From assembly GCA_002390205.1 (NCBI GenBank), contig DGOV01000083.1:1788-65787 (forward strand): a stretch of 64,000 nt of DNA, written 5' to 3'. The notes below the pieces were generated by a model. That model had not been told where the DNA came from, did not search any database, and saw only the letters and a program-made list of their open reading frames with translations. Position 1 is the first letter of the stretch, and every line of letters starts with the position of its first letter. Source of the DNA: Proteobacteria bacterium UBA4457 (GTDB lineage Bacteria > Pseudomonadota > Gammaproteobacteria > Ga0077536). Both the position numbers and the translations under genes were made by a program. Positions 8,957 through 64,000 of the stretch are shown piece by piece.

Positions 8957-9008
8957 GGCTTATATGGCCGCGTTTGATGCACAGGGCCAGTTTTGGCCTT
9001 TTATTCTT

Positions 9009-12505: not shown

Positions 12506-12525
12506 ATATATAGGAGAAAAATAAA

Positions 12526-13464: not shown

Positions 13465-13486
13465 TAATACAGAGGCTCATTTCCTT

Positions 13487-15674: not shown

Positions 15675-16510
15675 TCGACTGGGTGTTGTTGCGCTTCCAC
15701 CGAGAATGTTTCTCTGTCTTCAAGTCGCATGGCAGTTAACTTCCTACCCCATACCGCTCCTGTGTCTAGCGGATATACCGAGTGTTTTTCCCATTCTACT
15801 CTAGGTAGATTTAACGATGCCCAGTGCCCAAATAGGATGCGGATGTTTGCCGTTTTCCTAGCTGGCATTAAGTACCAAGGGACCAGCTCTGCAGAAACGG
15901 CCACCGGAGTCCTTTTCTCGGAGAAGTTCATAGCCCCTTGTTTGGTAAAATACCTACACCGAGTCAAGCAATTTGCTATGAACCTTAGCCGGTCATTACC
16001 CGCTAGCTTATCGTTCCAAGTAGTAGGCTCATTACCATACATTGACAGAAGAAACTCGCTACTTGTGCCTTCGTTAGCCAACACTGACTCTAGCTCCTCA
16101 GCTAAATCAAGAGTTTTTTCTAGCGACCATTCTGGAGGGACGCCAGCATGAACCATTGCAAAATTAAGTTTTGCATCCCAGTGGAAAAATGATTGATTTT
16201 TCAGCCATTCAACAATTTTACTGCAGTTTGGAGAAGCCAAAATATCGTGAAAAGTATCTTTTGAGTTTTTTATTGGCGCTCCTGAAGCAACTAACGCAAG
16301 TAGGTGTAACTCGTGATTTCCGAGGACAATTTTTGCAGCGCTCCCTAGCCTCATAACTTGGTCCATAACGGCTAATGAAGATGGTCCCCTGTTTATGAGA
16401 TCTCCAGCTAACCACAGTATATCGGTGCGTTTGTTGAAATCGATCAATTTCAGGAGTCTTGATAACTCATTGTGGCAACCTTGAACATCGCCCACTGCAT
16501 AGGTCGACAA
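15671..16510 (-). CDS. apaH: Symmetrical bis(5'-nucleosyl)-tetraphosphatase
   Basis: YAVGDVQGC, GDLINRGP, VLGNHE, FGHWASL, LDTGAVWG. Confidence 0.96.
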   Translation of the reverse strand: MSTYAVGDVQGCHNELSRLLKLIDFNKRTDILWLAGDLINRGPSSLAVMDQVMRLGSAAKIVLGNHELHLLALVASGAPIKNSKDTFHDILASPNCSKIVEWLKNQSFFHWDAKLNFAMVHAGVPPEWSLEKTLDLAEELESVLANEGTSSEFLLSMYGNEPTTWNDKLAGNDRLRFIANCLTRCRYFTKQGAMNFSEKRTPVAVSAELVPWYLMPARKTANIRILFGHWASLNLPRVEWEKHSVYPLDTGAVWGRKLTAMRLEDRETFSVEAQQHPVD

Positions 16511-48949: not shown

Positions 48950-49705
48950 TCAGTATATTCTCAGTATTGCGGCATCACCTTCGCCATCGATGAAATCATC
49001 AAATCCATCACCAGGAGGATTACCATCATATAAAGAGTACTCTCTCTGCTGGCGCCAAGCTTCTCTTACGAAGGCATAAGGATCTAGCGCAGCTTGATCT
49101 CTTAATCGACTGGCTTCGAGCAGATTCGCACGTGAATTAATTGCACGCACAACTCCGGCCGGAACTGTTACTACTGCAGCTAAATAAGTTAAGGGATTGG
49201 TGAAAATACTCATTACCGGCGCAGAAACGTCTCTGTAGGAGCTTGGCCCCATAAAAGGAAGAGTCAGATAAGCTCCTTGGTCCGCGCCCCATTTTCCGAG
49301 TGTTTGTCCCAGATCTTCTTTGCGCAAAGGCATCCCTAGCGCAGTCGCTGGATCAAATAGTCCTCCGATTCCTAGAGTACTATTTACTATAAATCTTCCT
49401 GTATCTTTAAAGAAATCCTTAGGTTTTCCTTGCAATATATCGTTTGTGATCGTGTTCAGATAGCTTGCATTATCGAAGAAATTTGTCACACCTTTTCGTA
49501 CTACTGCGGGTGTCACAGCTACGTATTTTTCAGCGACAGGCTCTATAAATTTTTTGTCCAACGTATCATTGAAGGCGTAAATTTTTCTATTTATAGGCTC
49601 GTGAGGATCATTGTTAGATGTTTTCGATGTCGAGGCACAGCCGGTAAACAGTACGATGCACAAAGTACTTAATAGACATTTCAGCTGTATATGATTCTTT
49701 AACAT
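48950..49705 (-). CDS. mlaA: VacJ/MlaA family lipoprotein (hopanoid cluster-associated)
   Basis: Lipobox FTGC, DPHEPINRKIY, NSTLGIGGLFD, EDLGQTL, LPFMGPSSYRD, DPYAFVR. Confidence 0.92.
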   Translation of the reverse strand: MLKNHIQLKCLLSTLCIVLFTGCASTSKTSNNDPHEPINRKIYAFNDTLDKKFIEPVAEKYVAVTPAVVRKGVTNFFDNASYLNTITNDILQGKPKDFFKDTGRFIVNSTLGIGGLFDPATALGMPLRKEDLGQTLGKWGADQGAYLTLPFMGPSSYRDVSAPVMSIFTNPLTYLAAVVTVPAGVVRAINSRANLLEASRLRDQAALDPYAFVREAWRQQREYSLYDGNPPGDGFDDFIDGEGDAAILRIY

Positions 49706-49780
49706 TTAGTTTAGTCTCCCTTCGTGTCCTTGATTTCCCATATTACCTTAATCGCACGGGCGGGCACCATATTTTTCTTT

Positions 49781-50398
49781 CTAACCTAATTCTTTCAGGG
49801 CCTCGATCTTCGTTGTTAATTGCCGAAGGAGACTTTTAATGCCATCTTTTTCCATTATGTAAGAATATTCAGCTTTCTTAAGGGCTAGGTCTGAGACTCC
49901 TTCCGAAATCACATTTACGATAAGCCAGCCTTGTGAATTTTTTCTCAGGAGGTATTTCAGTGAGGTCCTGTCTCCGTTGTCCGATACCAGGGTAGTACTT
50001 AGGGAAAGGGAGTTGTTTCTTGATTTTCGTTCAACAATTACAAATTTCTGACCGGAGTAGTTTGAAAAGTGATGCGCGTAGGTTGATATGCTGAGCGATC
50101 GCATGACGCTCACGAACTCCTGTTGATCCTCATGGGACAGTACTCCCCATTTTTCCCCGAGGACTACTTTACTGATTAGTGGAAAGTTAAAACTTTCACT
50201 CACAACGTTTCTGATTATGTCTATTCGGCCGGCATGGCCCAAGCTCTTTTCAGATTTCATTGCTGTTAGAAGCACTTCGTGCAAATTGACGACTATTTCC
50301 TCGCCCCCGAGCGAGCGATCTCCTCCCCAACCAGGAGCACTAAATAGGCACAGAATAGAAAAAATTATGGTTGTTCGATAGAAATTGGCTTTACCCAT
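49781..50398 (-). CDS. hpnM: MlaC/Ttg2D-family periplasmic lipid carrier (HpnM-like)
   Basis: Signal peptide, VLGEKW, YAHHFSNYSG, W.IVNVISEGVSDLALKKAEY; in the hopanoid cluster. Confidence 0.82.
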   Translation of the reverse strand: MGKANFYRTTIIFSILCLFSAPGWGGDRSLGGEEIVVNLHEVLLTAMKSEKSLGHAGRIDIIRNVVSESFNFPLISKVVLGEKWGVLSHEDQQEFVSVMRSLSISTYAHHFSNYSGQKFVIVERKSRNNSLSLSTTLVSDNGDRTSLKYLLRKNSQGWLIVNVISEGVSDLALKKAEYSYIMEKDGIKSLLRQLTTKIEALKELG

Positions 50399-50422: not shown

Positions 50423-51538
50423 TTAATTCACTTTACGGTACGTTCTATTTTTCCAACGTGTCCGTTCACCACGCCAGTAGCGAATGGCGGAAGTCCACGT
50501 CATAGCTAAGAACAGCGAACTAGCAAACGGTAAAGAGAAAACCCAGAAAGATGAGCATCGGTAATGTCTTATAGTGGGCAAGTATGCGAGACACATCACT
50601 ATCAGACTTATTGCGGACAATAGTCGAACATAGCTATTATCGGATAGAATTCCAGCCAACGGCGTTAGAAAAGTGATCACCAAGAGTGCAGAGCAGAGTA
50701 GAAGCAAAGGTAGTGAATATTTTAGTTGTGTGAATGCAGTTCTCGCGACCATGTTCCATATGTTGGATAAAGTGCCATAAGGGCGAATAGCCTCAACATC
50801 GTGGCTGAGTCCGATCCACGTCCGGCCTCCTGCTTTTTTAATCAGTTTTGCAAGTGTGCAATCATCAATGATCGCATCGTGTAGTGCTGTAAAACCTCCT
50901 ATATCGTCCAACTTTGATGCCTTTATTAGAATGCAGCCGCCAGCTGCACCCGCAATCTTGGAGTTTGGATCATTACTTAATGCAAAAGGATAGATAAGTT
51001 TGAAAAAAAAGATAAAAGCGGGAAGCAAAAGTTTTTCCCATAGGTTCGCTATGGGTAACATAGCCATTATGGAGACAAGGTCTAAGTTCTTTTTTTGTTG
51101 AAGCCGGAAGAGGTCTGTTAGAGCTTGGGGAGCGAGCCTTATATCAGCATCCAGCAAAAGCAAATAAGGTGTTGAGATCTTCTTCCTACCCTGCTCTAAG
51201 GCCCAGAGCTTTCCTGTCCAGCCTGGAGGGGGAGGTTGACCTTCTACCAAACTAAGATTTTTTATATTGAGGTTTGTAACGGCGCTCGCTGTCTCATCCG
51301 TACTTTGATCATCTATCACAACGATCCCGCCCAGAGAGCCTTGCGACGCTAAAGCCAAAATAGTTTCTACTATGCATTCTGCCTCATCTCTTGCAGGTAT
51401 CAACGCAGTAATATGGGCGAGGGAAGGAGTACTTTTATCAACTCTTTCTAATTTCTCGCTCGTAGACCATGGGCGCCAAGGCAAGCACAATAGCGTTAGC
51501 CAAAGTATTACCGAAATTGAGGAAAGAGCTATTAGCAT
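50423..51538 (-). CDS. hpnB: Hopene-associated GT2 glycosyltransferase HpnB
   Basis: IPARDEA, DDQSTD, PPGWTGKLWAL, LDAD, AGAAGGCIL, IIDDCTLA, WNMVARTAFTQL. Confidence 0.85.
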   Translation of the reverse strand: MLIALSSISVILWLTLLCLPWRPWSTSEKLERVDKSTPSLAHITALIPARDEAECIVETILALASQGSLGGIVVIDDQSTDETASAVTNLNIKNLSLVEGQPPPPGWTGKLWALEQGRKKISTPYLLLLDADIRLAPQALTDLFRLQQKKNLDLVSIMAMLPIANLWEKLLLPAFIFFFKLIYPFALSNDPNSKIAGAAGGCILIKASKLDDIGGFTALHDAIIDDCTLAKLIKKAGGRTWIGLSHDVEAIRPYGTLSNIWNMVARTAFTQLKYSLPLLLLCSALLVITFLTPLAGILSDNSYVRLLSAISLIVMCLAYLPTIRHYRCSSFWVFSLPFASSLFLAMTWTSAIRYWRGERTRWKNRTYRKVN

Positions 51539-51589: not shown

Positions 51590-52726
51590 TTAAGCGACTT
51601 CTCTTTTTTCCGTACCAGCTTTTTCTATAGTATTTCCCATTGGGATAATAGTCTGAGACTCAGCTTCAGGCTCTTCTTCATAGTAGAATGGCACCTCTGG
51701 TGCAAGATCTCCTTGAGTCTTTGGACCAGCTAAAAATACTTTCAGTGCCTTAAGCGGGTTGTTAAACGTATCGTCAACCGCAGTCGCTTCATATCCGCAA
51801 TGAACCATGCAGTCAGCGCACTTTGGATTAACGCCAGTCCCGTATTTATCCCACTCGGTATCGTTTAACAACTCATCGAATGTGGACGCGTAGCCTTCTC
51901 CTACGAGCAGGTAACACGGTTTCTGCCACCCAAAAACATTCCGAGTGGGGTTCCCCCAAGGGGTACAGTGATAGGTCTGGTTTCCGGCCAAAAAATCTAA
52001 ATATAAGGTAGATTGATTAAAGCGCCATTTTTTGCCCTTGCCCGCTTTAAATATATCTCTAAACAGATTTTTACTCGCTGATTTTTTAAGAAAGACGTCT
52101 TGCTTTGGGGCTCTTTCATAGGAATAGCCGGGAGATATGGTGACGCCTTCTACGCCAAGAGCCATCATTTCGTCCATAAAGTCACTTACTTCATCTGGTG
52201 TTTCACCTTGGAACAACGTGCAGTTCACAGTGACGCGAAAGCCTCGTTGAAGTGCTTTTTGAATGACGCTTACGCACTTATCATATACGCCTTTTCGGCA
52301 TACAGACGCATCATGTCGTTCTCGACCTCCGTCCAAATGTATAGAAAATGTAAGGTATTTTGACGGCTCATACGAATCCATGTGCTTATCAAGAAGAATG
52401 GCGTTAGTACACAAATAAACAAATTTCTTTCGATCGAGATATCCTTGCACTATCTGCCGCATTTCTTTGTGTATGAGAGGTTCTCCACCTGCAATAGAGA
52501 CCATTGGTGCTCCGCACTCATCGATGGCTTCCATACATTTTTCATAGCTCAGGCGCTTGTTAAGTATGTCAGACGGATAGTCTATTTTTCCACAACCAGA
52601 ACAAGCTAGATTACAACGGAATAATGGCTCTAGCATTAAGACGAGTGGATACCTCTTAACGCGTTTCAGTTTTTGGCTGAGAATATATCGACCTACTCGA
52701 TATTGCTGGATTAGTGGGACACCCAT
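51590..52726 (-). CDS. hpnH: Radical SAM adenosylhopane synthase HpnH
   Basis: YPLVLMLEPLFRCNLACSGCGKI (CX3CX2C), CTPWGNPT, WQKPCYL, KCADCMVHCGYE. Confidence 0.95.
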   Translation of the reverse strand: MGVPLIQQYRVGRYILSQKLKRVKRYPLVLMLEPLFRCNLACSGCGKIDYPSDILNKRLSYEKCMEAIDECGAPMVSIAGGEPLIHKEMRQIVQGYLDRKKFVYLCTNAILLDKHMDSYEPSKYLTFSIHLDGGRERHDASVCRKGVYDKCVSVIQKALQRGFRVTVNCTLFQGETPDEVSDFMDEMMALGVEGVTISPGYSYERAPKQDVFLKKSASKNLFRDIFKAGKGKKWRFNQSTLYLDFLAGNQTYHCTPWGNPTRNVFGWQKPCYLLVGEGYASTFDELLNDTEWDKYGTGVNPKCADCMVHCGYEATAVDDTFNNPLKALKVFLAGPKTQGDLAPEVPFYYEEEPEAESQTIIPMGNTIEKAGTEKREVA

Positions 52727-52958
52727 GCGATTTTCCTAGTTTTGAGGAGAAATTGTATATGATTATTATATATTTACGACGTATTTTATATATATTACTA
52801 ACAGTACTGTAATAGAGCGTGAAAGTACAGCTTTGTTGCAGGGGAAAAGTGTTAAAATACTTTCAGAGAGAAAGAAGGTTAGCTTGCAACCAAGCGGTCT
52901 GCTCTCCATAATTCACACCCTAGGGTAATTGCTGGCAAATTGTGAGAAAAATAAGAAT

Positions 52959-54815
52959 ATGACGAATGGAAAGAAATACTCGCTACTCGACGAAATAGAT
53001 AGTCCAAAGAGTATGAGAAAGTTATCGGAGGATCAGTTAAGTGATTTGGCCTCCGAAGTTAGAGAGTTCCTTTTGAATAGTGTTAGCCAGGTCGGTGGTC
53101 ATTTTGCTTCAGGTTTAGGAACTGTAGAACTTACCATCGCACTTCATTATTTGTTTAACACGCCAGAAGATCGGATAGTCTGGGATGTAGGGCATCAAGC
53201 TTATCCGCACAAAATTTTGACAGGGCGAAAAGATCGACTGCACACCATCCGGCAGCACGAAGGGCTTGCACCGTTTCCGAAGAGAGATGAGAGCCCATAC
53301 GATACTTTTGGAGTTGGTCACTCTAGCACTTCTATAAGTGCTGCCCTAGGGATGGCTATAGCTGCAGAGCATGACGGCTCCGGTCGGCGTGCGGTAGCTG
53401 TTATCGGGGATGGAGCGATGACGGCCGGAGTAGCTTTTGAGGCAATGAATCATGCCGGAGATCTTGGTACTGATTTACTTGTTGTTTTGAACGACAACAA
53501 CATGTCTATTTCTCCAAATGTGGGAGCACTTTCTAACAGGTTTGCGCAAATACTATCTGGAAAACTTTATACCAGTGTGCGAGAAGGAAGTAAGAAAATG
53601 TTGGCTCAGATGCCGTCCGTCTGGGAATTGGCTAGGCGGGCTGAGGAGCATGTCAAAGGTTTGATTGTCCCTGGAACGCTATTTGAAGAGTTTGGTTTTA
53701 ATTATATCGGCCCTATAGATGGACATGATTTGCCCACTTTACTCTCTACTCTGAAAAATATTAAAAATCTTTCAGGGCCTCAATTGCTGCATGTAATAAC
53801 AAAGAAAGGTAAAGGTTATGCTCCTGCGGAGTCTGATCCGATTAAATATCATGGTGTTTCCCCCTTCGATCCAGAGGTCGGGATAAAGAAATCTACTGTT
53901 AAAAAAGCTCCAAACTATAGCGATGTCTTTGGCGATTGGATCTGTGATATGGCAGATCAGGATAGGAGACTAGTAGCTATTACTCCTGCGATGAGAGAAG
54001 GCTCAGGTCTCGTCCGTTTTGAAAAAGAATTTCCAAAGAGATACTTCGATGTAGCGATAGCAGAACAGCACAGTATAAATGTAGCCGCAGGTATGGCCTG
54101 TGATGGTGTTAAACCCGTAGTGGCCATTTACTCAACCTTTTTGCAGAGAGGTTACGACCAAGTAGTGCATGACGTTTGTAATCAGAACCTTCCTGTTCTT
54201 TTTGCCCTAGACCGTGCCGGATTAGTTGGTGCAGATGGACCAACACATAATGGGTGTTATGACTTATCTATTTTGCGGTGCTTGCCAAATATGACGATTA
54301 TGGCGCCGTCTGATGAGAATGAGTGCAGACAAATGTTGTACACGGGGTTTATGATGGATAGTCCAGTGGCTGTTCGCTATCCCCGAGGAACTGGTCCTGG
54401 CGCAGAAGTAGAGCAACAGATGACAGCAATACCCCTAGGAAAAGCCAGCTTAAAGCGGAAAGGGGCTAAAGTTGCTTTGTTAAGTTTTGGCACGACGTTA
54501 CAGATCGCGTTGAACGTGGGCGAACGTTTAGACGCTACAGTCGTTAACATGCGTTATGTTAAGCCGCTCGATATGGATATGATCATAGAAATGGCTGGTT
54601 CTCATGACATCCTCGTAACAATAGAAGAAAATATGGTTGCTGGTGGCGCCGGTAGTGCCGTTAATGAAGTTTTAGCCTTACATGGTAGGCACTTGAAGAT
54701 TTTAAACTATGGGTTACCAGACAGGCTTATTGAGCATGGATCACGAGATGACATGCTCTTGGATGCGGGCTTGACCGAGGAAGGTTTTGAGGCATTTGTA
54801 AAAGCGAGGTTGTGA
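52959..54815 (+). CDS. dxs: 1-deoxy-D-xylulose-5-phosphate synthase
   Basis: [46 protein letters not shown]. Start moved to the ATG at 52959. Confidence 0.98.
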
Positions 54816-54829
54816 AATTACTGAGGAGA

Positions 54830-55903
54830 CTATCTTAGAGTTTTAGTTAAAGCTTCTAAGAGTCTGCTCATATCGTTTTCAGAGATTGCACCCATCAGAG
54901 ATAATCTGAAAACCTTGGTTGAAAAGTGTCCTTGGCCTGCGTAGATAATGAAGCCAAGCGACTTGAGTTCATCGTGTAAATGTTGATATACCTTGCCTAC
55001 TGGCAGTTGGAACGTGTTGAGAACGCACGAAGATTCAGATAGTTCTATTAACGGTTTTATCCCGAAAGAGAGCAACTTTTTCTGCACCTTTGACATTCGG
55101 TTAGAAAACAACTTATGCCGAGCTTGCCAGCCCCCTTGCTCTAAAAACTCGTTCATCGCCTCATCAAAGGCGTAGAAGCATTGCACCGATTGCGTGAAAG
55201 GCGTTTCACCTAGATCTTGCTTAACAAGGTACTGGGCTAGGTCCAGGTAAACTGATTTTGCAGGGTGGGTTGTTTGAAAAAGTACTCGTCGGGCAACAAC
55301 GAAAGCTGTTCCTGGAACACCATGTAGGCACTTGTTCGCTGTCGCGGCACAGGCATCAAGTTCCCACTTTTCGAAGTCTATACTTTCCCCCCCAAAACTA
55401 CTTACACCATCCATCAATACGCGTACTCCGTGCTTGCGGCACACTTCGGAAATCGCTGAAATATCATTCAGACGTCCAGTGGTAGTTTCGTGATGGACTA
55501 TCGCTACATGTGAGTATCGAGATCCATCAAGCGCTTTATCTAGCTTTTCCAGTGAGATTACTTGATCCCATCCTGTACTTAGCTTTTCATGATCTATGTT
55601 ATGCGCGACTGCAATTTTGGTCATGCGTTCACCATAAACGCCATTTTCTAGGATCAGGATCTTTCCACCCGGAGGAATGCAGCTTACAAGCATGGCTTCT
55701 ACGGCCGCGGTTCCTGACCCAGTCAATAAAACACTTGCCCAAGTTTTATTATCGAGCGCATATGTCGCAAGAATCTTTTGCCTAATGTTTCCCTGCAAGT
55801 TAGAGAATTCGATTTCCCTGTGACAAAGATCTTGGCCTTGCAGAGCGTCTCGCACTCGTTGGCTAAGTGTTACTGGTCCAGGGTTTAAAAGAATCTGTTT
55901 CAC
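54830..55903 (-). CDS. aepZ: 2-aminoethylphosphonate aminotransferase (AepZ/PhnW family, PLP)
   Basis: LLNPGP, GSGTAAVE, NGVYGERM, HHETTTG, DGVSSFGG, ANKCLHGVPG, PFT. Likely GTG start at 55903. Confidence 0.92.
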   Translation of the reverse strand: MKQILLNPGPVTLSQRVRDALQGQDLCHREIEFSNLQGNIRQKILATYALDNKTWASVLLTGSGTAAVEAMLVSCIPPGGKILILENGVYGERMTKIAVAHNIDHEKLSTGWDQVISLEKLDKALDGSRYSHVAIVHHETTTGRLNDISAISEVCRKHGVRVLMDGVSSFGGESIDFEKWELDACAATANKCLHGVPGTAFVVARRVLFQTTHPAKSVYLDLAQYLVKQDLGETPFTQSVQCFYAFDEAMNEFLEQGGWQARHKLFSNRMSKVQKKLLSFGIKPLIELSESSCVLNTFQLPVGKVYQHLHDELKSLGFIIYAGQGHFSTKVFRLSLMGAISENDMSRLLEALTKTLR

Positions 55904-55940
55904 TATGCCTCTTGTCCTTATTAACTGGTGAGTTATTGTT

Positions 55941-57080
55941 CTATCCAATATGGCTTTTGAGACGGACTAAAACATCTGATGGAGCTATTGTAGGCCGAGG
56001 TAGATCTTTTGGCACCCCAGTTTGGATTTTCATATGCATGAACCGAGCGCCGCTATGGCTGGGCTCAGCTAGGAAGTCGTGTAAAACTTCTAATTTATTG
56101 CTGCGCCAGACATTAGAGTAACCACAGGCAACAGCTATTCCATCAAACTGGGTATCTTTAGAAACAGTCGCTTGGCCACCAGTAGAGTCATGCGCTTCGT
56201 TGTCTAGTAACAAATGAGAAAAGTTAGGTGGATTGTATGCCCCTGCGGTTGCAAGATTACCCAGTCGCATTAGGGCGGCCCCATCACCGTCTATGACTAG
56301 TACTTTTAAATCAGGCCGACTAAGCGCTAATCCTAGACCAAGCGAGGAAGCGCACCCCATAGATCCGACCATATAGAAATAATTAGGGAGATCGGCGATA
56401 GAGTAAAGCTCGCGGCCGGTATATCCGGTAGTGGCTATGACGACGGTATTCGTTTGTTGAGTGGTCTTTACTACCGATTGTAAAACTTGGTTTCTCGTTA
56501 GTGCAGTAACGTCAATATTTTCATCACTCTGGTAAAAAGTATTTTGTTTCTTGTTTGGGAGTTGATTTTTTAGATTAAAGTTCGCCACCGATCCTTTTTG
56601 CATAATCAAAGAGTAGGATTCACGTTTTTCTTCTATGCTTTGCGAGATGTTGGCTAGGGTTGAATTAATTTCCTGAGTTGCTCGGGGGAAACTCTCATAG
56701 CCTATGCCAATACAATCGAATAACTCTTTTGTGATATTGCCCATCAGTTCATGTTGTGGTTCGTCCTTTAGGCCAGGTTCACCTCGATGAGTGCAGATTA
56801 CCAAGACGGGGATCTTAAAAGTATGTATGAGAGAAGTGAGCGGGCTAATAGCATTACCGAGCCCTGAGTTTTGCATTAGGGCAACACTTTTTTTTCCACC
56901 TATAGAAGCACCTGCTGCTATAGCTATTGCATCGCCTTCATTCGCGGCTGAAACATAATTGAGCGAACTTGCGCTGATTACATAGTTTATTAGTGGGGTT
57001 AAAAAAGAGCATGGCACTCCTGCGTACCAATCATACCCTTGATTTTTTAGCGGCAATATAAACTCTTCTGCTCGTATCAC
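55941..57080 (-). CDS. aepY: Phosphonopyruvate decarboxylase
   Basis: GVPCSFL, NEGDAIA, MQNSGLGN, RGEPG..DEPQH, VGSMG, DGDGAALMR, HDSTGGQ. Confidence 0.95.
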   Translation of the reverse strand: MIRAEEFILPLKNQGYDWYAGVPCSFLTPLINYVISASSLNYVSAANEGDAIAIAAGASIGGKKSVALMQNSGLGNAISPLTSLIHTFKIPVLVICTHRGEPGLKDEPQHELMGNITKELFDCIGIGYESFPRATQEINSTLANISQSIEEKRESYSLIMQKGSVANFNLKNQLPNKKQNTFYQSDENIDVTALTRNQVLQSVVKTTQQTNTVVIATTGYTGRELYSIADLPNYFYMVGSMGCASSLGLGLALSRPDLKVLVIDGDGAALMRLGNLATAGAYNPPNFSHLLLDNEAHDSTGGQATVSKDTQFDGIAVACGYSNVWRSNKLEVLHDFLAEPSHSGARFMHMKIQTGVPKDLPRPTIAPSDVLVRLKSHIG

Positions 57081-57091
57081 GTATTAGGGCC

Positions 57092-58738
57092 TTATTTTGC
57101 GTGGTTTGCGGCAAATTCGCTAGCACGCTCGAGGTCATGCAAGGAATTCACATTTATCCAGTGACCATGAATGTATATCACACGAATGGGACGACCATTT
57201 AATACAAGCTTGTTTAACAAATCTTTCATATCAAACGAAGGAAATTTATTGTTTTCTGACAGCTGATCTAAAGCTTCTTCTATCCATTTCCTGCCTTCTC
57301 CATGGACTCGCATCATGCCGATCCAGCGTCCATCGGAGCTTGAATTCTCTGTATAAGACTGATCACTGATCTGCTGGAGAAGAATGTCTTGGCCCCATAA
57401 AGACCGGTCATCTGGTCCGCTACAATAGGCATAATCTGGAGTCTCATTTGTAGATGATTCCAGCATTTGGGAGTCTACAATGACAGTTATTTCACGATCA
57501 GACTCTACAAGACTTCTGAGTACATACCCTCGGAACAAGACATCACCATACATAAGCACCATATCATCGGAGAAACTCTTTTTTGCGCATAATAGAGATG
57601 TCAACTCTCCAGTTGTCGCGTGCAAATCATTGACAATCAGTTCTATTTTTTTAGAAGGGATAGTTTCATGTTTGTAGCCACCCACTACAGCAAGATTGTC
57701 TACCCCATGTTTCTTGAATTGATCTATAAGTCTGCCGAGTAAAGGCTTGCCGTTAACGGGTAACATTACTTTTGGTCGGTCTGCAGTCAGATTTTCCAAA
57801 CCAGAACCTTGTGCGGCAGCGAGTAGGATGGCTTTTAAGTCTCTTTTTGTGCCTAAGAAATACTGTTTTTCTGCTGCTTGCAACTCGTCAGCCCCTTGCA
57901 AGCGAAAAATTTCTTTTACAGTCGCGATGTTGTCTTCTACCTCAACTAAATTTTCTTTCAACTGAATTTTTCTTGCAGTATCTTGCATTGCGGTTACTGA
58001 GCTTCTAATTAAATGGTTGGCCCAAATCACAAGATTTATCTTCGCGTCTCGAAAGACTTTCGTGGGGGTGCTGTAGTACTTTGTAGGGACTATTACAAGC
58101 GGAGCTCTGCCGGCCCATTCGTGAGCAAATTCGATGATTTGATCTGCTTCAGAGTGAGCGCTATGAATTAATATTGCATCGGCTCCTGCCTTTCTATAGG
58201 CCTCAGCTCTTCGCAGTGCTTCTGCTGTATTCCAACCTGCAATATATGCCTCGACGCGGGCTACAATACAAAAATCATCGTCTGTTTGCGAATCTTTTCC
58301 TGCGGCAATTTTCCCACAAAATTCATCTATATTTGCTAGCTCTTGTCTCTCTCCTGAAATAAAGCTATTTGTCTTAGGGAATAATTTATCTTCTATGCAT
58401 ACACCAGATACTCCACGTTGTTCCAGCTTTCGAACTAGACGACGCATATTGTTGAAATTTCCATACCCGGTGTCGCCATCCAAAAGAATTGGGATATTGC
58501 AGGCGTCGACCATAAATTCGACCATATCGACCACCTGAGTCCAACTGGCTTCGTTGTTATCTCTAACGCCGTATTGAGCCGATAAGGCAAGGCCACTGGC
58601 CCATATTCCACGAAAGCCTGCTTCTTCTGCGATTCGTGCGCTTATTCCATTGTGTGCTTCTAAAATGAATTCGAGGTTGTCCGAGAGCAGGAGAGCTTTC
58701 AGCTTTGAGGTATTTGTTTTTTGTTGATTAAGTGACAT
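57092..58738 (-). CDS. aepX: Phosphoenolpyruvate mutase fused to a C-terminal nucleotidyltransferase domain
   Basis: PepM-diagnostic EDKX5NS motif ([10 protein letters not shown]), DGDTGYG, EAHNG. C-terminal [10 protein letters not shown] / RPKVML / YGD domain. Confidence 0.96.
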
Positions 58739-59471
58739 TTATTTTAGGCAATATTTCATGTGAAGCTCGCTCAATATCCTCGGGGTAATCTATTTCTATC
58801 CAAGGGAGTCCGGTTATGTCCTCCACTCCTATATTATAGTCTGTATTTATCGCAAGTTCTCGCAGCGCTTCTTCATGCGGTTGAGATTCCATACCAGCTT
58901 CAATAAATCCAGCGATAATTTCTTTCAGTCTTACCGCAGTACTTGCGCAAAATTTGAAGAAACCGACTGACTCTCCGATTCGGTCATATACCAGGCTAGG
59001 GTCTATTTTTTTTCTGAATTCCACAATTTTCTCATTCTCTATGCATATTTTTACGGGCTCATCTCCGTCTATGTAATGACGGTCAATTAAGAAGCAATCT
59101 TTAGAAGGGCTGTGGATTAGCCGAGATAATATCTCAGGATGATATAAGACATCAGCATCCATAACTAAAACATCACTGGTACTATCGCACAAAACATCTC
59201 GCATACTCCAAAGACTAACAATCGATCCCAAATTGTATAAAGGGTTGTGCTTATGAGATATATCCGTCAACCCTTTTTGCTGAAGCCTTTCGAGTACGGC
59301 GGGTGCCTCGTGTCCAAGGCAGAGATTGATGTCAGTTACTCCTAGTTTCCTAAGTACCCGAATGTGTCTTTCAAGAAGAGACGTACCGTCAAATTCTAGG
59401 AGGCACTTTGCAGTCGCATGCGCAGAGCTAATGCGATTCCCAACTCCTGCGGCCAGTATTATAGCCTTCAC
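58728..59471 (-). CDS. Phosphocholine/phosphonate cytidylyltransferase (LicC/PntC-like)
   Basis: [43 protein letters not shown]; overlaps aepX. Confidence 0.88.
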
Positions 59472-60220
59472 TGTGCCTTCTTAAGTAGGCGCGCCAGAGT
59501 GTTGCCAACGCCAAAATATGCGAATGCGTCTTTCAGCTGTCCGTAGAAATGTCCAAAGTTTGAAATACTCGTATCCGTAAGGTACTCAAGCGTCAATACG
59601 GTACGCTTATCTCGCGGTTTGGCGGGTGTAACTCGATGTCGAATATTATCGCCATTAAAAAAAACGAGAGAACCGGGTGAAATTTTCGTGCTATGCATTA
59701 CAGTTTCCTTACAATCGTCTTTGCTGAACAGCTCGTATTCGAGCGCACAGCAAGATTCGTCTACGATGCCTATCAGACAGGTATATCGAGAACCTCTATA
59801 GTATGATTTGTCGTAATGAAATCCAATGTGGTCCCCTTCTCGGGCGTAGGAATATAGAGCATAGGCATGAGGATCGTTCTCAGGGCAGTATATGAGTGAT
59901 TTGCCGACTACAGAACTTAAGAAGCTCCTGAGCGAAGCTGAAGTGTAGATAGAGCTGAATATTGGGGCATTCAGATCCAGATCAAATCTCGAGATGCTAC
60001 CACCTTTTTTGTGTTTAGGTATAAAACTCCTGTGAATATATGGTTCGAGTTGAGGTAGAATCTTTTGTATGGAGCAAAGAAGAGAGTCAGGTAAAAAATT
60101 GTCTATTTGCATAAACTCGTCGTTTGTTCGAAATTCAGTCTGTGAGCTGTTGGCTTTTATACTACTCAATTGATTTAAAGGGTCGATTTCGGCAGCCGAT
60201 TTGTAATTAGCGATACTCAT
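59468..60220 (-). CDS. 2OG-Fe(II) oxygenase (H-x-D...H facial triad)
   Basis: GDHIGFHYD, G.LVFFNG..IRHRVTP, KRTVL; first gene of the phosphonate operon. Confidence 0.82.
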   Translation of the reverse strand: MSIANYKSAAEIDPLNQLSSIKANSSQTEFRTNDEFMQIDNFLPDSLLCSIQKILPQLEPYIHRSFIPKHKKGGSISRFDLDLNAPIFSSIYTSASLRSFLSSVVGKSLIYCPENDPHAYALYSYAREGDHIGFHYDKSYYRGSRYTCLIGIVDESCCALEYELFSKDDCKETVMHSTKISPGSLVFFNGDNIRHRVTPAKPRDKRTVLTLEYLTDTSISNFGHFYGQLKDAFAYFGVGNTLARLLKKAQ

Positions 60221-60359
60221 GTGACGTTAAACAACCTTTTATCCAGCGGCACTCATCTGTGGAGAGGGCTTCTCCAGACAAAGAGGGCCTGTTTTTCATA
60301 GCGTAATTTGCTGAGCTTTCGCTGATTATGCCATAGTCGGACAATGCGCAACCACAGAA

Positions 60360-61382
60360 TTGGCTAATAAAATGTCAAAAATCATTAAGTTTCTATTTTT
60401 ATTATTAGGTATCGGGTTGCTGGTAACGGTTACTTACCAGACTGACTTGGCCCAATTAGCGCAGCACATTTCCGCTATTGGGTTCTTTGGGGTTGCTTTA
60501 ATTCTTATCGTTTATAGTCTTTACTTCGGGGCCGATGTTCTGAGTTGGCAAATCACTATGCCGAAAATTCCGCTGACAATCCTTTGGTTTGGTCGTCTCT
60601 ATGTAGTCCGGATGATCGGTGAAGCCTATAATAACCTTACGCCAACTGCCTCTTTAGGAGGAGAACCCATTAAGGCGTGGTTGTTGAAATCGAATTGGGC
60701 GATTCCCATTAGAGATTCGGCCTCCTCGTTAGTTATTGCGAAAACAGCAAGTATGTTCTCGTTATCTATTTTTGGTTGCGTGGGTGTCATCTTTCTTTTT
60801 CAAAGTTCTGCATTTGCTGGGGAGGAGAAAAATATTGCGCTAGGCGGATTGATTTTTATAATATTTTCCTCCATTGTTTTTTTTATGATGCAGTATTTTC
60901 GTTTTTCGTCATATGTAGTGGGTAAAATTTCAAGTAATCGATTTGCTGGATTATTACAAAAAGCTTTTAGTACAGTAGAAGATATAGACAAAAAGTTTGA
61001 TGTTTTCTATCGGGAACATGGTTTGCGTTTCGGTGTCGCTTGCTTGGCGGCTATGGCTAATTGGTTGATTGGCATTGTTGAGGTTTTTGTGGTTTTGCAT
61101 CTTATTGGCTATCCATTATCCCTGGCGGAGGTTTTTATTATAGAGAGCCTTGTCCAATTAGTCCGCACGATTACATTTTTCATACCGGCAGGGCTGGGCA
61201 CTCAAGAAGGAACATTTTTTATTGTCGTAGGTGCCCTTACTGGGGTGTCTTCTGCAGGTTTGGCAGTGGCTCTCATCAGACGGTTTAGAGAGTTGATTTG
61301 GTTGGCAGTAAGTTTTTTATTAGCGATATTTTACTCAGTCAGGCCGAGTACAATCTCAAAATTAGATCTTGAAGAGCTATAG
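60360..61382 (+). CDS. HpnL-like / lysylphosphatidylglycerol-synthase-TM flippase-like membrane protein
   Basis: IGEAYNNLTPTASLGGEPIKA, FFIPAGLGTQEG, IRRFRELIW; many TM segments. Confidence 0.8.
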   Translation: MANKMSKIIKFLFLLLGIGLLVTVTYQTDLAQLAQHISAIGFFGVALILIVYSLYFGADVLSWQITMPKIPLTILWFGRLYVVRMIGEAYNNLTPTASLGGEPIKAWLLKSNWAIPIRDSASSLVIAKTASMFSLSIFGCVGVIFLFQSSAFAGEEKNIALGGLIFIIFSSIVFFMMQYFRFSSYVVGKISSNRFAGLLQKAFSTVEDIDKKFDVFYREHGLRFGVACLAAMANWLIGIVEVFVVLHLIGYPLSLAEVFIIESLVQLVRTITFFIPAGLGTQEGTFFIVVGALTGVSSAGLAVALIRRFRELIWLAVSFLLAIFYSVRPSTISKLDLEEL

Positions 61383-61391
61383 TTCTTTCGT

Positions 61392-62384
61392 TCAACCTAT
61401 CATTTTCATTTTTCGGAACCACTCTAATGAGTCATGAATGGCTATTTTTGCAGGGCGCGCACTATAGCCAAGTTCCTTAGAGGCTCGTGCCGATGAAAAG
61501 AACATTTTATGTGCAGCCATCCTTAACCCATCAACTGTGGCTTGCGGTTCCGGACCATTAGTTAGGCCGGCCCAAATCTCGGAGGCAAATGCAATGGGGT
61601 AGACAACCGCTCTAGGGATTCTTAGTCGAGGGGGGGGATGGTTACAGTATGCTGCAACGATATCGAGGATCTCTTTTAGAGTTTGGTTTTCGCCACCAAG
61701 AATATACCTTCGTCCAATTTGGCCTTTATCGTAAGCCAGCAAATGCCCTTTTGCTACATCATCTACATGAGCGACATTAAGTCCCGTATCAATGTATGCA
61801 GGCATATGACGATTAGCGGCATCTCGTATGATTCTTCCTGTAGGAGTCGGTTTAGGATCACGCGGTCCGATCGGTGTAGATGGATTCACAATGACAGCAG
61901 GTAGATTTTCTTCCACTACAAGACGATCGACAACTTTTTCAGCTAAAAATTTTGAACGTTTGTAGTGACCAATCATGTCCTTAAGATTTGAGGGCGTATC
62001 TTCGCAAGATGAATTTTCATCATCCGTTAGGCCAATAGTTGCGACACTGCTGGTATAAATGATTTTACTAACTCCTGCTCGCATTGCGGCACGCATAATG
62101 TTTTCTGTTCCTGCTACGTTATTAGCATACAGTTCATCGTGATTTTTAACCCACAACCTATAGTCGGCTGCGACATGATAGAGAGTATCGCATCCTCGTA
62201 ACGCGCGTTCTAGCGAGCCACTATCTTGGAGATCTCCGTTCACAACTGGAACATCTAGATCAGAGATTGTTCGGGTATCACTCGAGATCCGCTTGAGTAT
62301 CTTTAAAGAGACCCCTTGACTTAAGAGAGCTCTCGCTACTGCATTTCCGAGGAAGCCGGTTGCACCAGTTACAAGAGTCGTCAT
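61392..62384 (-). CDS. hpnA: Hopanoid-associated sugar epimerase/dehydratase HpnA
   Basis: VTGATGFLG, HVAADYRLW, YKRSK, VNPSTPIGPRD.KPTPTG, YILGGEN. Start moved to the ATG at 62384. Confidence 0.92.
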   Translation of the reverse strand: MTTLVTGATGFLGNAVARALLSQGVSLKILKRISSDTRTISDLDVPVVNGDLQDSGSLERALRGCDTLYHVAADYRLWVKNHDELYANNVAGTENIMRAAMRAGVSKIIYTSSVATIGLTDDENSSCEDTPSNLKDMIGHYKRSKFLAEKVVDRLVVEENLPAVIVNPSTPIGPRDPKPTPTGRIIRDAANRHMPAYIDTGLNVAHVDDVAKGHLLAYDKGQIGRRYILGGENQTLKEILDIVAAYCNHPPPRLRIPRAVVYPIAFASEIWAGLTNGPEPQATVDGLRMAAHKMFFSSARASKELGYSARPAKIAIHDSLEWFRKMKMIG

Positions 62385-62980
62385 TTTCCTTCGACCATAA
62401 TTTTTCTGTACTGGAGAATGACAAATAGAGCAGCTATAGGAGCTCCTAGACTGGCTAGATATAAAAAGGAATTTAAGCCCTCTAGCAGGGTCACGATCGG
62501 AATTAAATACAGAATATCTTCTGCTTCGAAGCCACCCCAAAGAGGCTGGTGGATTCTCGACTTTCCATGCTTTTCTTCTATTAAGTAGCGTAGGTGAAAG
62601 ATAAGCGCTACTGACACTCCTGAAATTATGCCGGCTTCCAAGGCATAATTAGCTTCTGAGAAAAGGGCAACACCAACTCCTATTCCTACAAACATTGATA
62701 CGGTGACTAAAGCATCTGATGCTAGATCGAAAATATGTCCAAACCGACTTTGTTTATTTGCAAGTCTAGCTAACTCTCCGTCCATATGGTCAATAAAGTT
62801 AGATGAGATTATCAGTAATGCAGCTATATTAGGATAAGCTCCTTTAGCAAAGAGCCATGCGCCTGCAAGTCCTACAATCAGTCTTAGTAGAGTGAAGTGA
62901 TTAGGGTGGATTGTATTAGAGTCTTTAAAAGGGGTTATCATCCAAGCTGCGGCTTTCGCATCCCAAGGTTTATCTCGCAA
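62381..62980 (-). CDS. CDP-alcohol phosphatidyltransferase family protein
   Basis: HPNHFT and the signature DHMDGELAR-X8-G-X3-D-X3-D. TTG start with an AGGAG RBS; overlaps hpnN and hpnA. Confidence 0.9.
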   Translation of the reverse strand: MRDKPWDAKAAAWMITPFKDSNTIHPNHFTLLRLIVGLAGAWLFAKGAYPNIAALLIISSNFIDHMDGELARLANKQSRFGHIFDLASDALVTVSMFVGIGVGVALFSEANYALEAGIISGVSVALIFHLRYLIEEKHGKSRIHQPLWGGFEAEDILYLIPIVTLLEGLNSFLYLASLGAPIAALFVILQYRKIMVEGK

Positions 62981-64000
62981 TTTCGGCGCTCCTTTTTACA
63001 TATCTGCGAAGTAGTAGTGGAAGACATCCTAGCGTACTAATCAAAGTTACTGAAAGGCCTAAGCTGAGCAAAAGACCCATACTTCCTGTGCCCGCATGAG
63101 GTGATATAGCCAAGTTCCCAAAGCTAGCCATGGTAGTTAGAGTGCTTAGAATAACTCCTCTTGCGGTACTGGTTCGCATGAAATTCATCGATAATCCATC
63201 GTGGTTAATATGGCGATGAATAATATGAAGCGTGCTATCAACACCAATGCCCACGATCAACGGGAGAGCAATGATGTTGGCAAAATTAAATGGCAAACCG
63301 ATTAAAACCATAATTGAAGTTGTTGCCACACATGCTAAGAGCATAGGTATAAGAGCGATTACTACGTGAGACGTTCTCTTCAAAGATACCCACAGCACTC
63401 CAATGATAACGAGACAGGCCGTCGCAAATGCTTGAGCGAACGAGGTGAGTACTGAACGACTTGCTTCAAGGCTGACAATAGGGGTGCCAGTAGCGCTATG
63501 GCCAGTAACTTTCCTTACCTCCGATATAAAGCCAGAGATTTTATCATTCGAATCTAATGATTCCTCAGGATTAATTTGTAGTCGGATAAGTCCTTCTTCC
63601 GATACCCATCGACTTTTAAGAGTGACAGGTAAATTCTCAAGGGTAACCATATTTGGAGATAGCCCATCATTTATTTTTTTTATCAGTGGAGAGAAATGGC
63701 GCATAGTCAGAGCATCTAAATTTCTTGCATATGTGACGTTTTGGTTGTGATCGGCAGTACTCAGTTGATTTAATATGTTTTGCAGCTGAGATTTGTAAAG
63801 GAGTGATGCTTTTGAAGGTTCGAACTGTTTGTCAATCGTTTCAATATTGCGAATTAAATTAATTTTGAGAGCTTTAAGATCAAGACTTGGTGCGTCTATG
63901 TCTTTGGTAAGTTGAAATTCCCCTCCGATCACCAGCCCTAGCTCATCGATGACAGCTAGTTTTGAAGCTTGCTTTTGCGGGATGAAAGATGAGATGAAAG
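62970..64000 (-). CDS. hpnN: HpnN-type MMPL/RND hopanoid transporter, C-terminal part (5' end beyond the window)
   Basis: Frame is open to the window edge (SSFIPQKQASKLAVI). ATGTPI, PFNFANIIALPLIVGIGVD, TTMASFGNL, HAGTGSMG. Confidence 0.88.
   Translation of the reverse strand, partial: FISSFIPQKQASKLAVIDELGLVIGGEFQLTKDIDAPSLDLKALKINLIRNIETIDKQFEPSKASLLYKSQLQNILNQLSTADHNQNVTYARNLDALTMRHFSPLIKKINDGLSPNMVTLENLPVTLKSRWVSEEGLIRLQINPEESLDSNDKISGFISEVRKVTGHSATGTPIVSLEASRSVLTSFAQAFATACLVIIGVLWVSLKRTSHVVIALIPMLLACVATTSIMVLIGLPFNFANIIALPLIVGIGVDSTLHIIHRHINHDGLSMNFMRTSTARGVILSTLTTMASFGNLAISPHAGTGSMGLLLSLGLSVTLISTLGCLPLLLRRYVKRSAEIAR

Follow-up and report, generated by a model that had tools for sequence, protein, structure and literature searches.

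A CDP-alcohol phosphotransferase gene shared by phosphonate and hopanoid loci suggests an undescribed phosphono-hopanoid lipid

Introduction

At the locus studied here, a gene for a CDP-alcohol phosphotransferase (CAPT) lies between the hopanoid genes hpnN and hpnA and near a phosphonate cluster, which raises the question of what this enzyme transfers and to which acceptor. Open questions from two fields meet at this locus, namely the product of the commonest PEP mutase (Ppm) cluster family and the function of HpnL, HpnA and HpnB. A phosphonate core of seven genes, including a CDP-OH gene, has already been described (Li & Horsman 2022, PMC8942020). The corresponding Group 1 phosphonolipid cluster family is the commonest Ppm cluster family, with 36% of the RefSeq neighbourhoods in one analysis, and its product has never been characterised (PMC8942020). 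In Burkholderiales, the CDP-OH gene heads the phosphonate operon (PMC8942020), and the classification 'Burkholderiales_CDP-OH' goes back to Yu et al. 2013, as cited in PMC8942020 and PMC5987646. On the hopanoid side, HpnA, HpnB and HpnL are still without a function (PMC12583986, PMC12324291), and PEP phosphomutase appeared among the domains correlated with squalene-hopene cyclase (SHC) in an independent survey, where it was left uninterpreted (PMC12324291, Table 2). A link between this phosphonate module and hopanoids was not found in the phosphonate or hopanoid literature searched. To our knowledge, hopanoids whose head group is a phosphonate or phosphate ester, or that contain phosphorus in any other form, have not been described.

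Results

Gene arrangement in the window

The features of the window, i.e. the whole stretch of 64,000 nucleotides that was analysed, are listed in Table 1.

Table 1. Phosphonate and hopanoid features around the CAPT gene, in order of position in the window.
Feature	Position	Strand	Evidence
MlaA/VacJ-like lipoprotein	48950-49705	minus	NF011672 125.6 bits, below cut-off
hpnM, MlaC-like	49781-50398	minus	TIGR03481 176 bits, above cut-off of 160
hpnB-like glycosyltransferase	50423..51538	minus	TIGR03469 378.3 bits, just below cut-off of 379.25
hpnH, adenosyl-hopene transferase	51590..52726	minus	TIGR03470 553.6 bits, above cut-off of 225
DXS copy, between phosphonate operon and hpnH	52929..54815	plus	syntenic, 72-96% identity in related loci
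2-aminoethylphosphonate (AEP) aminotransferase	54830..55948	minus	TIGR03301 386 bits, above cut-off of 360.8
Phosphonopyruvate decarboxylase (Ppd)	55941..57080	minus	TIGR03297 424.8 bits, above cut-off of 312.5
Ppm-PntC, fusion of PEP mutase and nucleotidyltransferase	57092..58738	minus	TIGR02320 390 bits, above 319.55; PF12804 at residues 303-417
Stand-alone nucleotidyltransferase, second PntC-like enzyme, IPCT-domain-like, 247 aa	58728..59471	minus	PF12804; NF041135 positions 1-218, 67.9 bits
2OG/Fe(II) oxygenase, HalD-like, H-Y-D motif, predicted AEP hydroxylase	59468..60220	minus	PF23169 42.8 bits; FHYD in translation
HpnL-like membrane protein (LPG_synthase_TM/flippase-like)	60360..61382	plus	PF03706 103 bits; TIGR03476 147 bits, below cut-off of 195.65
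hpnA, hopanoid-associated SDR/'sugar epimerase'	61392..62384	minus	TIGR03466 464.6 bits, above 367.65
CAPT, 199 aa, TTG start	62381..62980	minus	PF01066, catalytic motif, AF2 model, 'hpnN-X-hpnA' clade with SH-aLRT 98
hpnN 3' part, RND hopanoid transporter, gene runs past the window	62970..63998	minus	TIGR03480 positions 532-858
AAGGAG Shine-Dalgarno of CAPT, within hpnN 3' end	62989..62994	minus	sequence reading

Read on the minus strand, the TTG of CAPT occupies 62980-62978, with the perfect AAGGAG (62994-62989) located 8 nt 5' of it. An in-frame TAA at 62998-62996 precedes both, and the TTG is therefore the first possible start. The hpnN frame ends with EIAR-TAA at 62972-62970 and thus overlaps CAPT by 11 nt (62970-62980). 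At the other end, the CAPT stop codon TGA (62383-62381) and the hpnA start codon ATG (62384-62382) form a joint ATGA (62384-62381), and this hpnA start is supported by the full-length TIGR03466 match (residues 1-328 to model positions 1-326). Both overlaps had been proposed in the first-pass annotation and were confirmed by reading the sequence. In 22 related hpnN-CAPT-hpnA loci, the overlap between hpnN and CAPT measures 4 nt in 15, 11 nt in 3 and 8 nt in 1, and CAPT and hpnA overlap by 4 nt in 17/22. The overlaps at these junctions are conserved, not accidental. A promoter and terminator scan of 59000-64000 gave counts below the shuffle expectation. For the full hpnN on the contig (G000:C13:64790-67360), the score is 792 bits and the cut-off 752.

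All seven families of the Group 1 phosphonolipid core are present within 54830-62980, the HpnL-like protein being one of the two 'lipid' genes of this core. The core is not contiguous, since hpnA and the inverted hpnL-like gene lie between CAPT and the other five genes, and CAPT is coupled to hpnN and hpnA, apart from the remaining core genes. The first-pass annotation had placed CAPT outside the phosphonate operon. This is correct for the window but does not hold for the CAPT family, which belongs to the described seven-gene core. CAPT is the orthologue of the CDP-OH gene of the Group 1 phosphonolipid or Burkholderiales_CDP-OH module, and because this gene is the first of the phosphonate operon in Burkholderiales, its position here is a lineage-specific arrangement.

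The CAPT protein

A Pfam profile search matched CAPT to PF01066 with 60.8 bits against a cut-off of 22 over residues 25-169. The catalytic motif D64xxD67G68xxA71R72...G81xxxD85xxxD89 is intact, and its residues are invariant in 29 homologues. The AF2 model (pLDDT 89.6) has 7 helices, which fits the six-helix membrane fold with an N-terminal interfacial helix, and reaches TM-scores of 0.73-0.79 to PIPS 6h59 and AF2299 4o6n. Profile match, motif and model are each in agreement with a CDP-alcohol phosphotransferase. Ahead of the last pair of helices, the CAPT family has a conserved acidic motif of its own, GF(E/D)x(E/D)D. CAPT is predicted to be a CMP-(hydroxy)AEP:lipid-alcohol phosphonotransferase; comparing folds, the model did not tell a diacylglycerol from a hopanoid acceptor.

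A housekeeping phospholipid synthase (PgsA, PssA or Pcs) that came to lie between hpnN and hpnA by chance would have the Pfam family in common with CAPT, and nothing else speaks for it. CAPT stays far below every NCBIfam equivalog cut-off (AIPS 53.3/180, PgsA 40.2/109.1, PIPS 34.1/170, PssA 26.1/107 and DIPPS 32.1/580 bits), and a separate PgsA (170 bits) and PssA (119 bits) are encoded elsewhere in the same genome. In the tree, these two are remote outgroups and the CAPT family forms one well-separated group, in which CAPT clusters with the CAPTs of phosphonate clusters and those at the hpnN-X-hpnA position form one clade (SH-aLRT 98). Together with the presence of Ppm in 27/28 carriers (see below), these scores, the tree and the separate synthases refute a housekeeping identity, which is next to impossible. 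The separation from ordinary phospholipid synthases had been made a condition of the first-pass proposal, and it was found.

Gene layouts in other genomes

The 80 homologous CAPT loci listed by a scan were compared, and more than 450 further loci were also matched by it. In most of the 80 listed loci that are long enough, oxygenase, NTP transferase, Ppm-NTP fusion, Ppd and transaminase lie beside CAPT, and in most of the 80 an HpnL-like gene adjoins CAPT or the oxygenase. Sphingolipid, glycan or LPS genes were not recurrent among these 80 loci. The tightest gene pair is CAPT and the oxygenase, which are adjacent in Burkholderiales-type loci and stay together even when apart from Ppm, as in G128; in some genomes (G128, Paraburkholderia), CAPT and Ppm are distant from any hpn gene. 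Two genomes (L052 and L054) keep CAPT-oxy-hpnL-NTP with no Ppm seen, and some genomes (G138, G055) have two CAPTs in one locus. In Chlorogloeopsis, a B12 radical-SAM gene overlaps CAPT, and the profile libraries searched did not identify it as HpnP.

The order hpnN-CAPT-hpnA is found here and in more than 30 loci among the matches listed. When 400 genomes were sampled evenly across the class, 28 carried the family, and 10 of these, from 9 GTDB families, have a CAPT directly beside hpnN. Three gene orders occur at hpnN: hpnN-CAPT-hpnA, CAPT-hpnN-hpnA and hpnN-hpnL-CAPT. The hpnN-adjacent CAPTs include distant paralogues at 31-34% identity. In other layouts, the whole module lies inside the hopanoid island, as in L068 (shc-hpnA-CAPT-oxy-hpnL-NTP-Ppm) and in Pandoraea, where dxs, hpnN and shc follow just downstream. 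An apparent CAPT-HpnN fusion in G122 was rejected because its open frame of 1156 aa runs antisense to gyrA in GC-rich DNA; the two genes are separate there, 6 nt apart (stop 13795, start 13802).

Co-occurrence with PEP mutase and SHC

Nearly all bacteria with the CAPT family are producers of phosphonates as well as hopanoids. In the sample of 400 class genomes, in which shared ancestry confounds co-occurrence, it was present in 28, spanning 17 GTDB families. These 17 families do not equal 17 independent events. Ppm is present in 27/28 carriers, the sole exception being 75% complete, so that the family is not common in hpn operons of genomes without PEP mutase. SHC was detected in 26/28 CAPT-positive versus 37/372 CAPT-negative genomes (Fisher p = 2e-21, without correction for phylogeny). 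The two SHC-negative carriers are 62% and 88% complete, and both have hpnN and hpnH. Grouped by pathway, CAPT occurs in 25/27 genomes with Ppm and SHC, and in 2/12 with Ppm and no SHC, both of them incomplete. In the genomes holding homologous CAPT loci among the matches listed, SHC exceeded its cut-off in 39/41. Over both sets (26/28 and 39/41), three of the four SHC exceptions are known incomplete assemblies and the fourth is G006. In addition, six Ppm clusters with complete flanks were examined in SHC-less genomes, four of them with the same Ppm-NTP fusion. Up to a distance of about 10 kb, no CAPT-like open reading frame was present, even when E<=1 was allowed. A phylum-level sample of 300 genomes yielded three strong CAPT matches and a weak, probably different subfamily (77-93 bits; one family only).

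SHC was not found in the assembly to which the window belongs (87.7% complete). The SHC neighbourhood of the closest relative, 22 kb in length, is without any counterpart there, and the CAPT locus of this relative aligns to the window at 92% over 16 kb. Since the whole neighbourhood is missing while the CAPT locus aligns, the absence of SHC is tentatively read as an assembly gap. HpnH was present in 59/66 genomes searched, and for this reason its co-occurrence was discarded as a non-discriminating test for a C35 acceptor.

Discussion

The placement of the gene and the distribution of the family suggest, without proving it, an undescribed phosphono-hopanoid lipid. In the pathway we propose, PEP would be converted to phosphonopyruvate, phosphonoacetaldehyde and AEP by enzymes whose genes are identified in the window. 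By analogy with characterised PntC enzymes, AEP or its hydroxylated form would then be activated to a CMP conjugate. CMP-AEP is a plausible donor for CAPT because two cytidylyltransferases are encoded at the locus and PntC enzymes have been shown to make it (PMC6697681). At the cytoplasmic face of the inner membrane, the six-helix CAPT would transfer the phosphonyl group to a membrane-embedded alcohol and release CMP. This acceptor would most likely be the terminal hydroxyl of a bacteriohopanetetrol-type extended hopanoid, giving a phosphono-hopanoid, which the HpnL-like flippase-type protein would flip and HpnN with HpnM and MlaA-like proteins would export. Translational coupling from hpnN over CAPT to hpnA would ensure that the transferase is co-expressed with the hopanoid exporter. 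Acceptor, flipping and export are what we infer from two sources, gene linkage and phyletic pattern. In our preferred reading, which has a little less than an even chance of being right, CAPT takes (hydroxy)AEP from the CMP conjugate and attaches it to an alcohol in the membrane, with an extended hopanoid as the likeliest acceptor. The linkage of CAPT to hopanoid genes could reflect a shared envelope-remodelling regulon rather than a common substrate.

The main rival to the hopanoid acceptor is diacylglycerol, to which a classical phosphonolipid synthase would transfer (hydroxy)AEP from the CMP conjugate like a choline/ethanolamine phosphotransferase, with co-regulation or HpnN/Mla-like co-export to the outer membrane explaining the placement in hopanoid islands. 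Such a synthase is what the literature predicts for the cluster family, under the name 'Group 1 phosphonolipids' (PMC8942020; Nostoc paper PMC5987646), and it agrees with CEPT1 and CHPT1, which use a CDP-alcohol and diacylglycerol and have the same fold, as well as with the CAPT-oxygenase pair being unlinked from hpn genes in some genomes. However, diacylglycerol is universal, yet the CAPT family is essentially absent from the 337 SHC-less genomes of the sample and is absent from the six SHC-less Ppm clusters, including the four with the same Ppm-NTP fusion. Moreover, a diacylglycerol acceptor does not require the repeated, independently arranged adjacency to hpnN. We consider it unlikely, with a chance that still has to be taken seriously.

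The donor and acceptor roles might also be reversed, with CDP-diacylglycerol as donor and the hydroxyl of 1-hydroxy-2-AEP as acceptor, yielding phosphatidyl-hydroxyAEP with a free phosphonate. Such a reaction would be PgsA- or PIPS-like, and the oxygenase would provide the 1-hydroxy-2-AEP. The closest NCBIfam and PDB relatives of CAPT do include the CDP-diacylglycerol- or CDP-archaeol-dependent AIPS, PIPS and PgsA, and it is with the oxygenase that CAPT is most tightly paired, even apart from Ppm in G128. Since this reaction leaves no role for two conserved cytidylyltransferases and does not explain the restriction to hopanoid producers, it is very improbable. Another alcohol, such as ceramide, a soluble polyol as in DIPP synthase, or a glycan or lipid A hydroxyl, would make the hopanoid association indirect. 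In favour of this, the best sequence matches are DIPPS/AF2299-type enzymes using small CDP-alcohols, the CDP-alcohol phosphotransferase family includes a ceramide phosphoethanolamine synthase, and the paired CAPTs of G138 and G055 suggest more than one transfer. The lack of recurrent sphingolipid, glycan and LPS genes in the 80 loci listed and the HpnL-like flippase-type partner, which points to a membrane lipid product, make such an acceptor improbable.

The first-pass annotation had regarded CAPT as the link between the CMP-phosphonate supply and the hopanoid genes. This is supported by the separation of CAPT from ordinary phospholipid synthases and its rarity where Ppm is lacking, while the target of the attachment can only be surmised. 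Extended to the cluster family, the preferred hopanoid acceptor leads to the tentative proposal that Group 1 clusters of Burkholderiales, many uncultured Gammaproteobacteria and Nostocales might make phosphono-hopanoids instead of decorating glycerolipids. In these, CAPT would esterify bacteriohopanepolyols with (hydroxy)aminoethylphosphonate, the HpnL-like protein would flip the product and HpnN would export it. As the CAPT family is essentially confined to genomes with both Ppm and SHC, and recurs beside hpnN, the questions of the two fields become one experiment. If the proposal is true, phosphono-hopanoids would constitute a novel class of composite hopanoids, and HpnL would have a function for the first time. 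A hopanoid with a C-P bond would withstand phosphatases as well as phospholipases and would represent a novel type of biomarker lipid. Since the window stems from an uncultured marine-type gammaproteobacterium, such a lipid would be relevant to marine phosphonate cycling, too. If diacylglycerol is the acceptor, phosphonolipid synthesis would still be tied to hopanoid-containing envelopes.

Comparison with known systems

The best PDB sequence matches of CAPT are the archaeal IPCT-DIPPS and AF2299 (PDB 4mnd, 4o6m; E ~3e-4), to which its model has TM-scores of 0.69-0.79 at an identity of only 18-22%. The likeness extends to the 247-aa NTP transferase, which resembles the IPCT domain, and to the division of labour, in which a cytidylyltransferase makes a small CDP/CMP-alcohol that a membrane enzyme transfers. 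In contrast to IPCT-DIPPS, the activities in the window are in separate genes with no fusion, and a CMP-phosphonate donor and a lipid acceptor are predicted instead of inositol phosphate.

The proposed reaction type, in which a lipid alcohol of the membrane receives an amino-alcohol head group from a cytidine nucleotide, is that of CEPT1 and CHPT1 and also of ceramide phosphoethanolamine synthase. CAPT is much more distant from the larger, eukaryotic CEPT1 and CHPT1 (Foldseek E 7e-3 or worse), and the GF(E/D)x(E/D)D motif sets its family apart from them. With HpnG, HpnH, HpnI, HpnJ, HpnK, HpnO, HpnP and HpnR, CAPT shares the same islands and the same restriction to shc-positive genomes, but none of these uses a nucleotide-activated phospho or phosphono donor as predicted for CAPT.

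The closest system is the Group 1 or Burkholderiales_CDP-OH core, which has the same seven gene families, the Ppm-NTP fusion and a second NTP transferase. The CAPT of the window is 48-53% identical to those of Pandoraea, Paraburkholderia and Nostoc, with which it forms one family in the tree. The window differs from this core in its detached CAPT gene, whose translational coupling is to hpnN and hpnA on either side, and in the inversion of the hpnL-like gene. The CAPTs in this position form a clade of their own.

CDP-alcohol phosphotransferase gene and protein family

The CDP-alcohol phosphotransferase (CAPT) gene cannot start earlier than its TTG codon because of an upstream in-frame TAA, and an AAGGAG is located 8 nt 5' of this TTG. 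The position of the hpnN stop codon results in an 11-nt overlap of hpnN and CAPT. The upstream gene encodes HpnN, with the full-length copy on the contig scoring 792 bits on TIGR03480, above the cut-off, and the downstream gene encodes HpnA (TIGR03466, 464.6 bits). Both junction overlaps, of 4 nt or 11 nt, are kept across 22 loci. The first-pass annotation had described these two overlaps and a position inside hpnN-hpnA, apart from the phosphonate operon; its reading of the junctions is right throughout, and the arrangement holds for the window.

CAPT matches PF01066 (60.8 bits) with a complete DxxDGxxAR...GxxxDxxxD motif, and its AlphaFold model (pLDDT 89.6) reaches TM-scores of 0.73-0.79 against AF2299 and the mycobacterial PIP synthase. 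Relatives of similar size (about 200 AA) number in the hundreds in a database search, at 50-95% identity. An acidic motif before the last helix pair, GF(E/D)x(E/D)D, is specific to the family, kept in all clades and absent from PgsA and PssA; speculatively, it is a candidate site for binding the head-group amine. A role as a housekeeping phospholipid synthase was rejected since all NCBIfam equivalog scores are far below their cut-offs and the UBA4457 genome has separate PgsA and PssA proteins. A third CAPT encoded in this genome measures 396 AA, of which about 170 AA make up an additional N-terminal domain. Its gene has one for an HpnA-like SDR on one side and one for an NTP247-like nucleotidyltransferase on the other, and the region may represent a second, unrelated CDP-alcohol head-group system.

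Coordinates and arrangement of features in the window and in compared genomes
Feature	Position	Strand	Remark
CAPT	62980-62381	minus	199 codons, TTG to TGA
In-frame TAA upstream of CAPT	62998-62996		
hpnN stop (TAA)	62972-62970		
hpnA start (ATG in ATGA)	62384-62381		overlaps CAPT end
HpnL-like LPG_synthase_TM protein		divergent	beyond hpnA
HalD-like 2OG oxygenase		minus	operon beyond HpnL-like gene
Nucleotidyltransferase, 247 AA		minus	same operon
PEP mutase-nucleotidyltransferase fusion		minus	same operon
Phosphonopyruvate decarboxylase		minus	same operon
AEP aminotransferase		minus	same operon
dxs copy	52929-54815	opposite	between AEP aminotransferase gene and hpnH
hpnH, hpnB-like gene			beyond dxs
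hpnM (MlaC-like), MlaA/VacJ-like lipoprotein gene	48950-50398		after hpnB-like gene
Third CAPT, same genome	C66:21078-22277		outside window; region C66:17779-26631
Paired CAPTs, G138 (contig C10, L081)	12266-12841; 15713-16279		
Paired CAPTs, G055 (L083; L084)	12449-12964; 12950-13519		
CAPT locus of Chlorogloeopsis fritschii PCC 6912 (L041)	8338-10621		
Split hpnH, G401 (L086)	1429-2450		two overlapping frames

Gene orders and phylogeny

A scan with one genome per species compared 80 of at least 535 CAPT loci with the window proteins. Nearly all of these 80 loci of sufficient length contain the oxygenase (oxy), both nucleotidyltransferases (NTP), PEP mutase (Ppm), phosphonopyruvate decarboxylase (Ppd) and the AEP transaminase (TA). 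The module, to whose CAPT the window gene is orthologous, is the known seven-gene core termed 'Group 1 phosphonolipids' or 'Burkholderiales_CDP-OH'. No other family of Ppm neighbourhoods in RefSeq is as large, and its product is uncharacterised (PMC8942020); the core is also depicted for a lichen Nostoc (PMC5987646). In Burkholderiales and Steroidobacteraceae, CAPT heads the operon CAPT-oxy-hpnL-NTP-Ppm-Ppd-TA. In the window, as in many uncultured Gammaproteobacteria, the order is hpnN-CAPT-hpnA with the remaining module just beyond. The position of dxs is kept in most related loci, including Pandoraea, with 72-96% identity. The hpnM and MlaA/VacJ-like genes agree with a proposed hopanoid-trafficking pair (PMC12324291) and are syntenic in two loci (L086, L095).

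In a maximum-likelihood tree of 97 sequences, the genes between hpnN and hpnA form one clade (30 sequences, SH-aLRT 98) and the operon-head genes another (42 sequences, SH-aLRT 98), besides a cyanobacterial group and two long-branch paralogue groups. PgsA and PssA of UBA4457 are remote from CAPT, which, together with the equivalog scores, answers the question of grouping with ordinary phospholipid synthases raised in the first-pass annotation. Some genomes (G138, G055) carry one CAPT between hpnN and hpnA and one heading an oxy-NTP-Ppm operon, with 33-38% identity to the window CAPT. Two paralogues per genome suggest two distinct transfers, with two donors or two acceptors.

Several variants were observed. 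Two loci (L089, L090; G054, G272) contain the island shc...hpnN-hpnA-hpnL-NTP-Ppm-Ppd-TA-dxs-hpnH-hpnB (shc, squalene-hopene cyclase) without CAPT and oxygenase in the cluster; a distant CAPT lies on another G054 contig. In C. fritschii, CAPT is about 300 kb from Ppm, and its start overlaps the 3' end of a B12-binding radical-SAM/DUF4070 gene whose best NCBIfam matches, all weak, are PhpK-type P-methyltransferase, HpnJ and HpnR; this gene could encode a hopanoid or phosphonate methylase. The split hpnH of G401 has two internal stops (one TGA, one TAA), explained either by pseudogenisation or by an error in sequencing; this genome retains the full CAPT-phosphonate module.

Association with hopanoid biosynthesis

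The CAPT family is associated with hopanoid genes both phyletically and physically. Squalene-hopene cyclase (SHC) was found above the curated cut-off in 39 of the 41 genomes with homologous CAPT loci. CAPT, SHC and Ppm were also searched in 400 genomes sampled evenly from the window's class, of which 28, from 17 GTDB families, carry CAPT. SHC is present in 26 of these carriers vs 37 of 372 non-carriers (Fisher p = 2e-21), and Ppm in 27 of the 28 (p = 2e-31), both values ignoring kinship between genomes. CAPT is therefore not common without PEP mutase, a co-occurrence proposed for checking in the first-pass annotation. Assemblies that are 62%, 75% and 88% complete account for the exceptions, and the two SHC-less carriers nonetheless have hpnN and hpnH. 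CAPT occurs in 25 of 27 sampled genomes with both Ppm and SHC, and in two of 12 with Ppm but no SHC, both incomplete. SHC was not found in the window's own assembly (87.7% complete), probably due to an assembly gap.

No CAPT-like ORF was found, even at E<=1, in any of ten Ppm neighbourhoods; eight came from SHC-less genomes, and two (G107 and the SHC-positive G210) have an unfused Ppm. The four among them that share the window's Ppm-NTP fusion and Ppd (transaminase in three) are all SHC-less, though the contig of one spans just 3.3 kb. Ten of the 28 carriers, from nine families, have CAPT directly adjoining hpnN, distant paralogues included, in the orders hpnN-CAPT-hpnA, CAPT-hpnN-hpnA (G122) and hpnN-hpnL-CAPT (G244). 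Further layouts are shc-hpnA-CAPT-oxy-hpnL-NTP-Ppm (L068) and module-dxs-hpnN-shc in Pandoraea.

Proposed reaction and acceptor

For related enzymes, experiments have shown that PntC forms CMP-AEP (PMC6697681). Since the locus encodes two cytidylyltransferases and an H-x-D oxygenase, the CAPT donor would be CMP-AEP or CMP-hydroxy-AEP. CAPT would move the phosphonyl group onto a membrane alcohol, and the HpnL-like flippase-type protein and HpnN may then process the product.

An extended hopanoid is tentatively favoured as this alcohol, falling somewhat short of probable. Diacylglycerol, the published assumption, is a serious rival but rather unlikely: it occurs in every bacterium, whereas the CAPT family is essentially restricted to hopanoid producers and repeatedly joined to the hopanoid exporter gene hpnN. 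The remaining probability is shared by other acceptors, e.g. ceramide, a polyol or a glycan, and by a reverse polarity with CDP-diacylglycerol as donor and hydroxy-AEP as acceptor. Caveats to the hopanoid acceptor are genomes with dispersed parts (G128, Paraburkholderia) and two genomes that retain CAPT-oxy-hpnL-NTP but in which Ppm was not detected. Four loci hold this remnant without Ppm, Ppd and transaminase. In Paraburkholderia (L065, L066), the Ppm fusion is located elsewhere in the genome. In G023 and G024 (L052, L054), Ppm was not detected anywhere in the genome, so that scavenged AEP or a phosphate-ester donor is a possibility. The earlier inference that CAPT links the CMP-phosphonate supply to the hopanoid genes survives, as the family neither groups with ordinary synthases nor is common without PEP mutase.

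Hopanoids are unmentioned in the phosphonate papers covered on the core and PntC (PMC8942020, PMC6697681), as are phosphonates in the hopanoid papers covered, where HpnL, HpnA and HpnB are stated to be without known function (PMC12583986, PMC12324291). In a 2025 preprint, 'phosphoenolpyruvate phosphomutase' is one of the domains positively correlated with SHC in 5,568 genomes, filed under 'glyoxylate pathway' without discussion (PMC12324291, Table 2), which independently supports the association. CAPT belongs to an already known, uncharacterised family, and the novel aspect is how systematically this family is linked to hopanoid biosynthesis. This link opens the product of the core, the most common of bacterial phosphonate clusters, and the role of HpnL to direct testing.
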